Positions 33,520-38,197 of a stretch of 64,000 nt of DNA are shown here, in pieces (the first letter of the stretch is position 1; each line of letters opens with the position of its first letter). Made by a program: the position numbers and the translations under genes. Source of the stretch: Syntrophales bacterium (GTDB lineage: Bacteria; Desulfobacterota; Syntrophia; Syntrophales; UBA2210). The notes beneath the pieces are model-generated. The model made no database searches and was not told the origin of the DNA. It saw only the letters and a list, made by a program, of their open reading frames with translations. The stretch spans positions 352,001 to 416,000 of the forward strand of contig CAXXKT010000001.1 in assembly GCA_963662405.2 (NCBI GenBank). The letters run 5' to 3'.

Positions 33520-33612
33520 GTATCCAAGACATATCGACACAGTATGACGGCGTTCGAGCCGACAATACCTCACGAGTTATCCCAGCATCGTCAGCAAGGG
33601 AGGGAACAATCC

Positions 33613-34662
33613 ATGAAGATACTCAAAAGAATCCTGCAGGGTATCGGCGTACTCATCGGAATCATTATCGTGTATTGTGCGATTATCACGTTCCTCCCCG
33701 GTTTCGAGGTCACGCAGCAGCCCCTGAGTGACGGGAAACAATCGGTCGCACAAGCGGAAGCCGATCTTTCTTCGTTCAGAAAGGATGTGAGCTTCACGGT
33801 TGAGGGAACGACGATCAGCGCGTGGCTCTTCCTGCCGGAGGATCTGTCAGCGAAGGTTCCCTGTATCGTTATGGGGCACGGTTTCGGCGGGACCAAGGAT
33901 ATGGGCCTGGAACGATACGCCCTTCTGTACCGGGATGCCGGCTACGCGGTCCTGGCCTTCGATTACCGCCATTTCGGTCAAAGCGGGGGCGAGCCGAGGC
34001 AGCTCATCTGGATACCCTACCAGCTGGAAGACTGGAAAGCCGCGATCCGATACGTCCGGGGCCTCGAGGAAATCGATCCGGAGAAAATCGCGCTGTGGGG
34101 GACCTCCTTCAGTGGGGGTCACGTAATCGTGACAGCCGCGCAGGACAACCGGCTCGCCTGCGTTGTCGCCCAATGCCCGGGGGTGGACGGTCATGCCTCA
34201 GGGGAAATGTTCGTAAAGAGGGTGGGAATCGGGCATGGGCTTCGCCTGCTCATGCATGGGCAACGTGACCTCATGAGGTCCCTCTTCGGGCTGTCGCCCC
34301 ATAAGATACCCATTGCGGGAAAACCGGGGACGATTGCCTGTTTGAACACGCCGGATGCGTATGACGGCTACCGCAAGACGGTTCCCGACACCTTTATCAA
34401 CGAAGTCTGCGCCCGTATATTGATACGGGGAGGCAAATACCGGCCGGTCAAACATGCAAGCAAAGTCCGCTGTCCGGTCCTCCTCCAGATATGCGAGGAA
34501 GACACCATCATCCCCCTGAGCGCGGCGCAGGAGACGGTCAAAGAGTTGGGGAAATACGGAGAGGCGATCTACTATCCTATCGGTCACTTCGATATCTACC
34601 GGGGGGGTCATTTCGAGGAGGCCCTCAACGATCAACTGGCGTTTTTGAAAAGGCACCTGTAG
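33613..34662 (+). CDS. alpha/beta hydrolase with N-terminal membrane anchor
   Basis: HGFGG, FDYRHFGQSGGEPR, GTSFSG. Confidence 0.85.
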   Translation: MKILKRILQGIGVLIGIIIVYCAIITFLPGFEVTQQPLSDGKQSVAQAEADLSSFRKDVSFTVEGTTISAWLFLPEDLSAKVPCIVMGHGFGGTKDMGLERYALLYRDAGYAVLAFDYRHFGQSGGEPRQLIWIPYQLEDWKAAIRYVRGLEEIDPEKIALWGTSFSGGHVIVTAAQDNRLACVVAQCPGVDGHASGEMFVKRVGIGHGLRLLMHGQRDLMRSLFGLSPHKIPIAGKPGTIACLNTPDAYDGYRKTVPDTFINEVCARILIRGGKYRPVKHASKVRCPVLLQICEEDTIIPLSAAQETVKELGKYGEAIYYPIGHFDIYRGGHFEEALNDQLAFLKRHL

Positions 34663-34689: not shown

Positions 34690-35661
34690 ATGCTGAAATC
34701 CATACTGATCTCGGCTTTTATCTCAATAGCGATCTACTTCGGTATCGCCGCCGTCCTGATCCTGAGCGGCATCCCCGATCCGCCTGCGCAGGATGAAAGC
34801 AGCCTCCGATTCGAGGAACTGTTCATCGATTACGAAGGCCTGCCCGATCTGCACCGCTACGAGGCCAGAGACGGGGCGCAGTTATCGTACCGCCATTACC
34901 CTTCCGAATCGAACACGGTCCTGATCCTGTTGCACGGCGCGGGGTATCACAGTCGCTACCTGATGCCCCTGGCCCAATTCATCAGCTCCGAAGGCCTGGC
35001 GCATGTCTACACCCCCGATCTGCGCGGGCACGGACCGGCCCCCACGCGAAGGGGCGATATCGACTACATCGGGCAATACGAGGACGACATCGCCGACCTG
35101 ATTGCCGTGGTCCGGGATCGGCACCCCGATGCCGCACTGATCGTCGGTGGGCACTCCTCCGGCGGCGGGCTGACGATTCGCTTCGCGGGGAGTCGGTACG
35201 GGCGGCAGGCCGACGCCTATCTCCTCCTGACACCCTATCTCAAATACAACGCCCCCACCATGCGCCCCCAATCCGGGGGATGGGCGCAGCCCTTCACGAA
35301 ACGTATCATCGGTCTGGTGCTCCTCAATAATGTGGGAATCCGCTCGTTCAATCACCTGCCGGTCATTCGATTCAATACACCCGAAGAGGCAAGGGACGGG
35401 ACGGAGACCCTGTCGTACACCTACCGGCTCAATACGGCATATGCCCCGAAGAATTACAAAAAGGGACTCAAGGCCATTACACAACCCATCCTGGTCGTGG
35501 CCGGCACCGCCGACGAGGTGTCGTACGCCGATCAATTTGAACCCGTCATCTCACAATACACCGACGCGCAGGTGGAACTACTGGCCGGTGTCACGCACAT
35601 GGGGGTCGTGGTGGGAAGCGAAACCCGACCGGTGATAAAGAAATGGCTGGAAGAACGGTAA
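34690..35661 (+). CDS. alpha/beta hydrolase (lysophospholipase-like)
   Basis: LHG, DLRGHG, GHSSGG. Confidence 0.85.
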   Translation: MLKSILISAFISIAIYFGIAAVLILSGIPDPPAQDESSLRFEELFIDYEGLPDLHRYEARDGAQLSYRHYPSESNTVLILLHGAGYHSRYLMPLAQFISSEGLAHVYTPDLRGHGPAPTRRGDIDYIGQYEDDIADLIAVVRDRHPDAALIVGGHSSGGGLTIRFAGSRYGRQADAYLLLTPYLKYNAPTMRPQSGGWAQPFTKRIIGLVLLNNVGIRSFNHLPVIRFNTPEEARDGTETLSYTYRLNTAYAPKNYKKGLKAITQPILVVAGTADEVSYADQFEPVISQYTDAQVELLAGVTHMGVVVGSETRPVIKKWLEER

Positions 35662-35761
35662 AAAGAAAAAGTTCGTAACGGCTTGTAGTATCTTTAAATT
35701 GTGTACCAGACATTTTTTTGAAGCTTAATCAATGTGAAAGGAGGAATGATAAAAAGTCTTC

Positions 35762-35945
35762 ATGAGCTGTGAATTGGGATACACTGTTTGAAACTTTATA
35801 GTTTTGGGCAGCAAGGCTACTGTTCGACATGTTTACTGGTCTTCGAGACCGCAAAGGAGAATGAAGAGCTGTAGCCGCAACATTCAATGATCTTCGAGAT
35901 CGAATAGGAGATTGGGACCAATTCACCTGACAGGCGCTGTCCAAG
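35762..35945 (+). ncRNA. putative IS110 bridge RNA (ends approximate)
   Basis: Outer stem GTGAATTGG 35769-35777 / CCAATTCAC 35918-35926; two internal loops capped by TTCGA hairpins, carrying target- and donor-matching segments. Confidence 0.8.
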
Positions 35946-35962
35946 ATGTGAGGAGGCGTTCT

Positions 35963-37075
35963 ATGAAGATGAGTATCGGGGTTGACCTTCACAAGACGCA
36001 GTTTACCGTTTGTTGTTTGAGTGAAGATCGGAGTGTTCAGGAGTCGGGCATCTACCCGACGACTGATCGAGGTTACCGGGCATTTATCATGAAGGTGTCC
36101 AACTGGAATGAGGGCGGTTACGAGGTCACGGCAGCGGTGGAATCAACAGGGAACACCCGACACTTTCGCAACCGGTTTTTGAAGGCGGGGATTGAGGTCA
36201 AGATAGTGAACACCTTGAAATTCAAGGTTGTAAATGAGTCAGTAAAAAAGACTGACAAGCATGATTCCCGCACATTGGCTGAGTTTCTTGAGAAAGATAT
36301 GCTTCCCGAGTCCATTCTTTGTTCGCAGGAAAGCGAGGACATTCGAAGGCTTCTCAAGTCACGTTCTGTTCTGGTGAAAGCTTTGGTATCCTTGAAAAAC
36401 CAGATACACGGTTTATTGCTTGGATATGGGATAGAGAGTCGGCGGGGACAGCTGCAGAGCAAAAAAGAAAGGCAGCGAATCCTTGACGGTCTCGCGGACC
36501 ATAGGAGTTACGGAAACGCTGCCCGAGCGGTAAAACCGCTTCTTGGTACAATAGACCAAATTGCATCCGAGGTCAAAGGACTTGAGCGCGTATTATCTGA
36601 TCTTGTTTCTGAAGACGAGGATGTTGCTCTGTTGCAAACGATTCCTGGCGTTGGAATAATAACAGCAGCGACGATTCGGGCTTATACCGATGACATCAAC
36701 CGATATGAGAGCGCCAAGCAGTATGCTGCTCATGCCGGTTTGGTACCATGGGTTCAAAACTCCAACAAGACCATTCGCCATGGTCATATTACCAAGCGAG
36801 GCCCCGTGGAACTGAGGACGGCTTTTGTGCAAATGGTAATGGGGATGCTACGGCTTCGGAATAAAACCGATGGATATTGGCTTATGTACAAATACAAAGC
36901 CATGAAAGAGAACAAGGGAACCGGGAAGAGCGTAATAGCGACGGCGCGAAAGATGAGCACTATTGTATATGCCATCTTGAAGAAGGGGGAGCCGTTTGAT
37001 CCATCGAAAATGCTGCCAGACCCGAAATATGTAGAGATGAGTAAGGTTGCGAGGTGTTATGCTTTGGCCGTTTAA
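35963..37075 (+). CDS. IS110 DEDD recombinase/transposase
   Basis: GVDLHK (D), VESTG (E), KTDKHD (DD), TIPGVG, GLVP..QNS catalytic Ser region, GHITKRG; AGGAGG RBS. Confidence 0.95.
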   Translation: MKMSIGVDLHKTQFTVCCLSEDRSVQESGIYPTTDRGYRAFIMKVSNWNEGGYEVTAAVESTGNTRHFRNRFLKAGIEVKIVNTLKFKVVNESVKKTDKHDSRTLAEFLEKDMLPESILCSQESEDIRRLLKSRSVLVKALVSLKNQIHGLLLGYGIESRRGQLQSKKERQRILDGLADHRSYGNAARAVKPLLGTIDQIASEVKGLERVLSDLVSEDEDVALLQTIPGVGIITAATIRAYTDDINRYESAKQYAAHAGLVPWVQNSNKTIRHGHITKRGPVELRTAFVQMVMGMLRLRNKTDGYWLMYKYKAMKENKGTGKSVIATARKMSTIVYAILKKGEPFDPSKMLPDPKYVEMSKVARCYALAV

Positions 37076-37139
37076 ATTTTAACCATGGGCCTGTTTGACA
37101 GGCTCTCCATGAATTGACTTTTTATAGGAGGAGGTATTG

Positions 37140-37814
37140 ATGGAACTGAAAGAAGCTATCACGAAGCGGATCAGCGTGAGGGGCTACAGACCGGATCCCG
37201 TTTCCCGGGAGGTCCTGACCGAGATCATTGAGACATCCCTTCGCGCGCCGTCCGCGATGAACGTCCAGCCCTGGGGGATCACCGTTCTTGCCGGCGGACC
37301 TCTGGACCGGTTGCGCGACACGAATATGGAGCTGCTGAAATCGGGCGCGGTTCCCGTTTCGGATTTCGGGCATGCGAAACCGTACGAAGGGGTCTACAAG
37401 GAACGCCAACGCACGCTGGGATTCCAATTATACGGCCTCCTCGGCATTGAGCGGAATGACAAGGCAAAACGAATGGAGTGGACCATGAAGGGGTTTCGGG
37501 GGTTCGACGCACCGGCCATGGTCATCCTGTCGGCCGACAAGGGCCTCGATACCCGGCTCGCCGGTTCCGATATGGGCGGACTCATTCAGACCATCTGTCT
37601 GGTGGCCCTCGAATACGGCCTGGGCACCTGCATCAACGGACAGGGCATCTTCTTCCCCGACGCCGTCAGGACGGTTGCCGGTATTCCGGAATCGCACAAC
37701 ATCTATATCTGTATCGCCATCGGCTATCCCGACTGGGACCATCCGGCGAACAGGCTGGTGAGCGACCGGGAGTCCATTGAAACCGTCACGCGCTGGGTCG
37801 GATTCGATCAATAG
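37140..37814 (+). CDS. nitroreductase family protein
   Basis: RISVRGY, APSAMNVQPW, GLGTC, IAIGYP. Confidence 0.9.
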   Translation: MELKEAITKRISVRGYRPDPVSREVLTEIIETSLRAPSAMNVQPWGITVLAGGPLDRLRDTNMELLKSGAVPVSDFGHAKPYEGVYKERQRTLGFQLYGLLGIERNDKAKRMEWTMKGFRGFDAPAMVILSADKGLDTRLAGSDMGGLIQTICLVALEYGLGTCINGQGIFFPDAVRTVAGIPESHNIYICIAIGYPDWDHPANRLVSDRESIETVTRWVGFDQ

Positions 37815-37858
37815 AAAACCTTTGGTATCCCGGTAACGGCAAGTCGCCTGTTGAAACG

Positions 37859-38197
37859 CGGGCCGTGGGGATGAAGAAGGCCAAGGAGATCTGGTACCTG
37901 TGCCGGCGCTACACGGCGAAAGAGGCGCTGGACATGGGACTGGTGAACGCGGTCGTCCCCCCGGACAAACTTGACGAAGAGGTCGCGGCGTGGTGCCGGG
38001 AACTCCTTGAGAAGAGCCCGACCGCCCTCAAGATGCTCAAGTATTCTTTCCACGGGGAGACGGACGGCGTCATGGGAATTTCCAACCTGGGGGTCGGCGG
38101 TCTCAGCATGTATTACGAAACGGACGAATCCCTGGAAGGGAAAACGGCCTTCATGGAGAAGAGAAGACCGGACTACTCGAAATTCCGAGGCAAGTGA
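37859..38197 (+). pseudogene. 5'-truncated MenB/BadI-type crotonase fragment
   Basis: VGMKKAKEIWYLCRRY..EALDMGLVN..AFMEKRRPDY is only the C-terminal ~110 aa; no RBS. Confidence 0.75.

Follow-up and report, generated by a model that had tools for sequence, protein, structure and literature searches.

Why should an insertion sequence settle directly ahead of a start codon, and what directs it there? This question is raised by an IS110-family element in the genome of a Syntrophales bacterium (assembly GCA_963662405.2, contig CAXXKT010000001.1), of which we analyzed a stretch of 64,000 nucleotides (nt), positions 352,001 to 416,000 of the forward strand, henceforth termed the window and numbered from its first letter. 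The element, an insertion sequence of 1,387 base pairs (bp) that includes a copy of AGGAG at its right end, occupies 35744-37130 on the plus strand. A first-pass annotation made from the letters of the window had proposed that its left end encodes a two-loop RNA with one set of guides for the target and one for the donor. Such guides, termed bridge RNAs or seekRNAs, have been on record since 2024, and many variants of their structure are known from large surveys (bioRxiv 10.64898/2026.10.21.760802). Based on comparative sequence analysis, we conclude that 35744-37130 is an active-looking IS110-family element whose 5' non-coding end (approximately 35762-35945) very probably encodes a bispecific guide of the bridge RNA/seekRNA kind. 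The element class is known; the layout described here is a variant.

The limits of the element were defined by comparing the flanks of nine copies in the same genome. These copies are 100% identical across 35737-37130 and hence recent. All nine share the left junction (A)AAGGAG/GAATGAT and the right junction ...TTGACTTTTTATAGGAG, behind which unrelated sequence follows. The flanks diverge right after the terminal ATAGGAG and before (A)AAGGAG, and AGGAG is all that the two junctions have in common. Insertion is site-specific, with neither classical terminal inverted repeats nor a target duplication beyond this shared core.

The open reading frame (ORF) at 35963-37075 matches PF01548 (N-terminal DEDD RuvC-like domain, residues 5-155, E = 8e-19), PF02371 (C-terminal Tnp domain, E = 3e-20) and NF033542, 'IS110 family RNA-guided transposase', the last with 228.9 bits against a cut-off of 140 and over profile positions 2-343 of 343. 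Residues D8, E60, D98, D101 and S267 are invariant in all ten aligned homologues, down to 34% identity. They align with the catalytic D, E, D, D and S of IS621 named in the structural report (Hiraizumi 2024, PMC11208158), and S267 aligns with the serine of the ISCro4 ESG motif. Judged from these domains, the protein is an IS110-family RNA-guided transposase, as the first-pass annotation had recognized. Its similarity to characterized members is distant: IS621 gives 69 bits and ISCro4 70.7 bits, for the most part over the C-terminal domain, and IS4321 (read as locus L088; 27% identity over 289 amino acids) gives 68.9 bits, with IS4321 and IS621 scoring 49.5 bits against each other. These pairwise scores do not decide between subgroups, the transposase being no closer to IS4321 (68.9 bits) than to IS621 (69 bits).

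The RNA was analyzed comparatively. A protein-based scan covering one genome per species gave 77 loci, 31-91% identical, the majority of which belong to metagenome-assembled Desulfobacterales, Spirochaetia, Treponema, Leptospira and Lentisphaeria. A covariance model (R1) with a hand-set structure was built from the six closest sequences and used to search 43 sources. It matched the window, 27 complete elements and four degenerate or truncated ones (L077, L063, L047, L065), missed L053, L060, L064 and L086, and gave no match at E <= 1 in seven of seven sources of the Lentisphaeria group. For counting, we used 28 homologue sources (53-91% protein identity), with one per multi-copy genome and with truncated copies and the Lentisphaeria group set aside; all 28 match the model at E <= 1.2e-21. 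Standard pairs fill 93.4% of 1,188 cells (44 pairs, 28 homologues), where shuffling yields 81.9% on average and sliding the partners by 1-3 columns yields 26-43%; compensatory changes on both sides are seen in 27 of the 44 modelled pairs, and none of 500 shuffles reaches any of five helix measures, all these helix statistics being taken on an alignment fitted to the model, which favours the model, and on interrelated homologues. The covariation signal is carried by the outer stem, the hairpin Pa and both module hairpins (Table 1); pairs of hairpin 2 occur, for example, as GC 15 / AU 13 and CG 15 / UA 10. Every stem, module and sequence identity listed in the first-pass annotation was recovered base for base in the window. 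The exception in substance is the proposed 'caa/ttg' closure of module 2, which is 73.8% paired in the homologues and matched by 80 of 500 shuffles, i.e., without support beyond chance. Because this closing helix is unsupported, the donor guides are placed at a multibranch junction.

Folding of a single sequence is less telling. The stretch 35762-35945 alone gives z = -2.55 (1 of 200 shuffles as stable), with hairpin 1 and both the outer and the GGCTAC/GTAGCC stems present in the fold, and a longer stretch of 221 nt folds at z = -1.45 (20 of 200 as stable). Thermodynamics alone is thus modest evidence for the structure, the main support being comparative. Over 35000-38000, Rfam returned no family except a chance match to isrD (E = 1.7).

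Several features indicate an RNA that is read from the plus strand and not a DNA palindrome: a U-G pair closes both hairpins in 28 of 28 homologues each, one P3 pair occurs as UG 14 / CG 10 / UA 4, and the covariance model scores 197.5 bits on the plus strand of the window versus 15.2 bits on the minus strand. That the modules are instead duplex DNA sites bound by the transposase (the palindromes GGTC..GACC and GATC..GATC) is very improbable, for although both hairpins are palindromic in DNA and the subterminal inverted repeats are DNA-level signals, the frequent G-U pairs and the score are strand-specific, and the long-range helices P1 and P2 covary over 50-150 nt.

We then compared the loop segments, as delimited by the structural alignment, with the flank and the ends of the same element. 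The 5' segment of loop 2 is complementary to the first five nt of the element at 132 of 140 positions and perfectly so in 22 of 28 homologues; the shuffled mean is 113.6, and none of 10,000 shuffles is as good. Where the left end varies, the guide varies with it, as in CATAC/GTATG (L031), CATGC/GCATG (L034, L059) and CGTGC/GCACG (L048-L050). The 3' segment of the same loop, ATAGGAG, equals the right end in every homologue whose right end lay within the locus. The donor loop segments ATAGGAG and CATTC would thereby pair with opposite strands of both halves of the circle junction, in agreement with what had been proposed for module 2 from the window.

The 3' segment of loop 1 tracks the host DNA left of the element. 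Position -7 of this left-target guide matches the flank in 20 of 26 cases (0.35 expected) and position -6 in 27 of 28 (0.67 expected), in each case with none of 5,000 shuffles as good. Positions -5 to -1 (AGGAG) barely vary and are uninformative. The covariation of loop segments with flank and junction that the first-pass annotation had proposed to test in homologues is therefore present, at positions -7 and -6 for the target and in the 5-nt donor guide. Agreement is also seen between genomes: in three multi-copy genomes with different guides, the consensus flanks agree with their own guides. In the Syntrophales genome the guide reads A,A at positions -7 and -6, and the flanks have A in 8/9 and 9/9; in JWTM01 it reads T,A, with T in 6/6 and A in 6/6; in OY776510 it reads T,T, with T in 5/15 and 13/15. 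In L059, position -4 is A in the target and G in the donor, which confines the crossover core to the last three bases, i.e., at most 3 nt.

These data bear on a further explanation, namely that the structure is a cis-regulatory 5' leader of the transposase mRNA that acts on translation or stability, its resemblance to flank and ends being incidental to their all being Shine-Dalgarno-like. The near-invariance of AGGAG, which deprives most of the flank identity of information, speaks for a leader, as does a conserved alternative helix, which could be regulatory, between the structure and the sequence that immediately precedes the ribosome-binding site of the transposase. A leader would, however, have no reason to track the host flank, DNA outside the RNA, at positions -7 and -6, and a 5-nt segment tracks the first bases of the element through at least three compensated variants. 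We consider a leader without guide function hardly credible.

The alternative helix itself was noted alongside the modelled structure. The 3' strand of Pa, TTTGGGCAG (35803-35811), can also pair with CTGTCCAAG (35937-35945), which follows closely downstream of the outer stem and ends about 5 nt short of the transposase ribosome-binding site. In an unfitted alignment of the 28 homologues this helix is 79% paired versus 32-58% when slid, and eight of its nine pairs changed on both sides. Since it crosses the outer stem, it represents a pseudoknot or an alternative fold, and it may act as a switch by which the transcript adopts either a guide fold or an mRNA fold. A second observation concerns 35837-35858, comprising hairpin 1 and the left-target guide: these 22 nt are 82% complementary to 36480-36501 inside the transposase ORF, which may be chance.

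Table 1. Features of the element and its flanks (window positions; pairing percentages refer to the 28 counted homologues).
Feature	Positions	Strand	Observations
Left target half AAAGGAG, a Shine-Dalgarno sequence	35737..35743	+	AAAGGAG in 8/9 copies, TAAGGAG in 1/9; same as the 3' segment of loop 1
Right donor half GAATG, first bases of the left end	35744..35748	+	complementary to CATTC 35881-35885; covaries with the CATTC segment in homologues
Left subterminal inverted repeat ATAAAAAGTC	35749..35758	+	all 10 nt complementary to 37116-37125
Predicted bridge/seek RNA, both ends predicted	35762..35945	+	covariance model match 35764-35930; helix covariation
Outer stem P1, GTGAATTGG / CCAATTCAC	35769-35777 / 35918-35926	+	9-nt perfect inverted repeat; 92.5% paired, 8/9 pairs changed on both sides
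Hairpin Pa	35784..35811 (35784-35795 with 35800-35811)	+	86.5% paired; 11/12 pairs changed on both sides
Target-binding module (module 1)	35815..35876	+	helix 3, 94.8% paired; enclosed by P2, P3 and P4
P2 (GGCTAC / GTAGCC)	35815-20 / 35871-76
P3	35822-25 / 35866-69
P4	35828-30 / 35861-63
Loop 1 5' segment GTTTACT, candidate right-target guide	35831..35837	+	last T = U-G pair with 35851; variable, U-rich in homologues
Hairpin H1 (hairpin 1), GGTC-TTCGA-GACC, then GCAAAGGAGA	35838..35850	+	99.3% paired; GC to AU and UA to CG changes
Left-target guide AAAGGAG, loop 1 3' segment	35853..35859	+	identical to left flank 35737-35743; top-strand sequence, would pair with the bottom strand
Right-donor guide CATTC, loop 2 5' segment	35881..35885	+	reverse complement of GAATG 35744-35748; 22/28 perfect
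Hairpin H2 (hairpin 2), GATC-TTCGA-GATC, then GAATAGGAGA	35889..35901	+	100% paired; two pairs with 13 and 10 sequences changed on both sides
Left-donor guide ATAGGAG, loop 2 3' segment	35904..35910	+	same as right end 37124-37130; invariant in 28/28 RNAs
CTGTCCAAG, possible alternative partner (Palt) of 35803-35811	35937..35945	+	79% paired, unfitted alignment
Transposase, 370 amino acids	35963..37075	+	Pfam and NCBIfam; ribosome-binding site GAGGAGG at 35950-35956
Right end	37114..37130	+	-35-like TTGACT 37114-19, repeat GACTTTTTAT 37116-25, ATAGGAG 37124-30
ATAGGAG, left donor half plus core, also new Shine-Dalgarno sequence	37124-30	+	sequence
Right target half GAGGTATTG plus ATG (37140) of the nitroreductase-family gene	37131..37142	+	right flanks differ among the 9 copies

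The left-target guide spells a ribosome-binding site, and copies accordingly sit just ahead of start codons. Across the family, an ATG lies 4-10 nt past the end of the element in 43 of 47 right flanks, with a spacing of 6 nt in 24 of the 47 and of 5 nt in 9. The gene that follows the element in the window encodes a nitroreductase-family protein, and TAGGAG, the last bases of the element, replaces the Shine-Dalgarno sequence that the insertion has split. The same habit is seen in the distant Lentisphaeria genome CP091727 (L067-L083; 34% protein identity), in which the termini differ (TGGTATGATAAAT... / ...TTTTATCATAGGAGA): the left junction reads ...GGAGA/TGGTATGAT in 9 of 11 loci, the right junction ...TATCATAGGAG(A) in 10 of 11, and an ATG follows nearby downstream in 10 of 11. 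By eye, its guides comprise AAAGGAG-like and ATAGGAG words in an RNA scaffold different from the R1 model.

The right half of the target is, in comparison, at most weakly specified. Registers from -5 to +6 were tried for the 5' segment of loop 1 as a right-target guide, and the best, -2, has its last two bases facing the AG core. In the Syntrophales genome, the right 5 nt predicted from this segment are matched at 2.22 of 5 positions at occupied sites versus 1.18 at free sites (P = 0.0007) and 1.31 at start-like free sites (P = 0.003), a difference that is confounded with A/T richness, as occupied sites are richer in A/T (3.44 versus about 2.6 of 5). Among 20 letter permutations, the predicted right 5-mer ranks narrowly first (2.22, then 2.11 and 2.0). 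The segment may confer a loose preference for an A-rich spacer, or contribute nothing to target choice. The idea that the start codon is read by the CAT adjoining loop 1 was not supported: CAT belongs to helix P4 (C-G 27, A-U 27, U-A 21 of 28), and reading by CAT would require the 5-nt spacing found in the minority of flanks given above.

Several observations, besides the fitting of the alignment already mentioned, weigh against the reading as a bispecific guide. The right-donor guide has 1-2 mismatches to the left end in 6 of the 28 homologues (L033, L046, L058, L061, L062, L079). Position -8 does not track the flank (8/25 matches, 0.24 expected), from which we take the left-target guide to be 7 nt long. 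Complementarity of the loop 1 5' segment to the right flanks is weak even in the best register (3.68/7 for cognate and 2.94/7 for non-cognate pairs), a difference of only 0.74 of 7. In OY776510 (L013-L028), the 7-mer of the donor guide, ATAGGAG, is found in 9 of 15 left flanks, and that of the target guide, TTAGGAG, in only 4 of 15. Contigs of three DNA runs from one sample, inspected over 35300-37600, contained no circle junction, no empty site and no joint; this comparison showed only the repeat boundaries at 35737 and 37130 together with the depth ratio, contig depth being about 41 within the element and 4-6 outside it. A look-up of RNA runs listed none that holds the element, a result with no bearing on expression. 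Lastly, the 7-nt match alone does not explain placement. The genome has 925 AAAGGAG sites; among the 917 that are free, an ATG follows 4-10 nt downstream in 238 (26%) and also opens an ORF of at least 80 codons in 177 (19%), versus an ATG at 8 of the 9 copies (binomial p = 1.4e-4).

Some side observations belong to these points. The donor-like flanks of OY776510 recall the 'half-match' recombination of the IS621 donor loop, as described in a preprint (bioRxiv 10.64898/2026.08.31.748434). Miniature elements account for part of them: this Spirochaetia genome carries elements of ~110-145 nt whose left end GAATGATAAAA... and right end ...TTATAGGAG are the same as those of full copies. They lie directly upstream of full copies in L018 (1180-1287), L019 (1145-1287) and L025 (1147-1287), and L024 and L028 have partial ones; it appears that a non-autonomous derivative, through its Shine-Dalgarno-like right end, served full elements as an insertion site. 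An empty site could not be read in relatives either, as the left-flank DNA is present in 0 of 40 related genomes searched. In runs X1 and X3, both made from the same sample, a single contig each has only the last ~41 nt of the element (37090-37130), with a 2-nt deletion at 37107 and neighbours that are not among the nine assembled sites; this may be the remnant of a solo right end, or the population may contain a tenth site.

The excess at gene starts admits a reading in which the RNA reads the 7-nt left half only and the bias arises purely by selection, in-gene insertions being lost and those that rebuild a ribosome-binding site tolerated. It is a reading that we take seriously without thinking it probable. 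It accommodates the lack of relation among the right flanks of the copies and the weak guide-to-right-flank complementarity, and it draws on the right end rebuilding a Shine-Dalgarno sequence, which would make such insertions nearly neutral. Yet the nine copies are recent, as judged by their identity, and are already concentrated at gene starts. The right half that loop 1 predicts is, moreover, matched more closely by occupied sites than by free ones, with the A/T confounding and the narrow first rank stated above. An additional layer that does not involve pairing has a precedent in ISPpu10, for which 'dual-match' targeting is described: RNA-DNA pairing does not fully explain target choice there, and a further target determinant is proposed (bioRxiv 10.64898/2026.03.19.712850). 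The extra determinant of ISPpu10 is a GC-rich stem-loop in the target; no such stem-loop was seen here, no search aimed at one having been made, and the additional bias of the element described here is toward gene starts.

How does this guide RNA, which we favour as bispecific, relate to known systems? In IS621, the top strand is bound by the 3' side of the loops (right guides of 4-7 nt; Durrant 2024, PMC11208160), and the top strand is cut directly after the CT core (Hiraizumi 2024, PMC11208158). The window element resembles IS621 and ISCro4 in combining a DEDD RuvC-like domain with a Tnp domain that has a catalytic serine, in encoding the RNA in the left end, upstream of the recombinase gene, and in dedicating one loop to the target and one to the donor. 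In the window element as in IS621, the bottom strand would be the partner of the left guides and the top strand that of the right guides, and cleavage immediately after a short core and a promoter at the circle junction, as predicted here for the window element, would be further likenesses. To this extent the IS621 paradigm invoked in the first-pass annotation holds. It does not extend to the order of the guides, which is reversed in both modules: the window element has the top-strand-pairing segment 5' and the bottom-strand-pairing segment 3'. Other differences from IS621 include the right-donor guide, which stops at the first base after the core and leaves the core uncovered, whereas all four guides cover it in the IS621 type; CATTC is followed by AA, unable to pair with the core, CATTCC occurs in only 3 of 28 homologues, and each of the two left guides terminates within the core. 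A multibranch junction, not a closed internal loop, harbours the donor guides, and what target and donor have in common is the 5-nt AGGAG in place of a 2-nt CT core. The subterminal inverted repeat of 10 bp also departs from the 2-3 bp reported for the IS110 group.

The reversed order matches IS1111-family seekRNAs (ISEc11, ISPa11, ISKpn4), in which the complement of the top strand comes first, opposite to IS621 (Siddiquee 2024, PMC11187229). The scaffold, which had been thought possibly uncharacterized, is in this respect a familiar one, and the expectation was only partly right. The correspondence is clear in the donor module, where CATTC precedes ATAGGAG; in the target module, it is the 3' segment that matches the bottom strand. 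The IS1111 family is marked by subterminal inverted repeats of usually 11-13 bp with terminal extensions of 7 bp and 3 bp (same source). The perfect subterminal repeat of the window element, at 10 bp, is 1 bp below this range, and the 5 + 5 = 10 nt between the repeats at the joined ends equal the 7 + 3 of the family. A multi-loop position of the donor-binding nucleotides is likewise described for many IS1111 members (Durrant 2024, PMC11208160). Unlike in IS1111, the non-coding region of the window element lies upstream of the transposase gene (219 nt, 35744-35962), with only 55 nt past the stop codon; a few IS1111 exceptions with an upstream non-coding region, such as ISMtsp17, are on record (Siddiquee 2024, PMC11187229). 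The transposase scores, as described above, bring the element no closer to IS4321 than to IS621.

Insertion at translation start signals may not be peculiar to this family. IS900, a mycobacterial IS110-family element, is reported to insert in one orientation between a ribosome-binding site and a start codon, although none of the papers searched states so. Its hed ORF is host-expression-dependent, lacking a ribosome-binding site and a start codon of its own (PMC8141618).

Together, these features suggest the following mechanism. The outer stem P1 would enclose the 5' hairpin Pa and two modules, each consisting of a 4-bp hairpin closed by the conserved U-G pair and single-stranded guide segments on either side. 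Module 1 would serve as target loop, its 3' segment AAAGGAG pairing with the left target half on its bottom strand and thereby reading a Shine-Dalgarno sequence. Module 2 would serve as donor loop, in which ATAGGAG, equal to the right end, and CATTC, the complement of GAATG, span the junction of the circularized element, a presumed intermediate. Presumably, the RNA is produced and the transposase binds it. Strand exchange by the DEDD/Ser recombinase would occur right behind ...AGGAG, with the core within the last 2-3 nt; this predicted cleavage position fits because the right flanks begin to differ there, by analogy with IS621. The element would then land between Shine-Dalgarno sequence and start codon, its own right end supplying a new one (TAGGAG). 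By coordinates, circularization would join TTGACT (37114-19) to TG-n-TAAAAA (35750-55) at 17-nt spacing and so create a putative promoter that starts transcription near 35762, just ahead of P1. The -10-like TAAAAA at 35750-35755 is preceded by TG at 35747-35748, and the TTGACT and TAAAAA motifs are widely conserved in the family. An outward promoter-like site, TTCACA-16-TATCAT (10/12; 35773-35746, minus strand), faces the upstream flank and is a consensus match only.

The surroundings of the insertion are those of an intergenic region, located between two adjacent alpha/beta-hydrolase genes upstream, 33544-34662 and 34690-35661 (Hydrolase_4), and the nitroreductase-family gene.

In the literature that we searched, we found no bridge or guide RNA described as targeting Shine-Dalgarno sequences; this family may already be listed in supplementary tables, namely those to Durrant 2024 and to the 2026 preprint on bridge-RNA mining. 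It is conceivable, if rather doubtful, that these elements represent a third architectural type of IS110-family guide RNA, encoded upstream as in IS621, with IS1111-type polarity, a multibranch donor site, a half-site of ~7 nt, a possible non-pairing determinant and a possible fold switch, in a clade that spans Desulfobacterales, Spirochaetia, Lentisphaeria and other metagenome-assembled genomes with 31-91% protein identity.

RNA-guided IS110 recombinases are under development as programmable DNA-insertion tools, and natural variants reveal where the RNA code is fixed and where it is free to vary. The family described here offers a compact scaffold of ~165 nt with a guide order opposite to that of IS621, and a natural case in which only the left target half seems to be read and in which the left halves of target and donor are near-identical (AAAGGAG versus ATAGGAG). 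The excess at gene starts over the prediction from 7 nt bears on layers of specificity beyond base pairing and is directly testable. For annotation, the family explains copies of IS110-type elements directly before start codons in several phyla. For the host, it suggests a 'polite' mode of insertion, in which the element replaces the very ribosome-binding site that its arrival splits.

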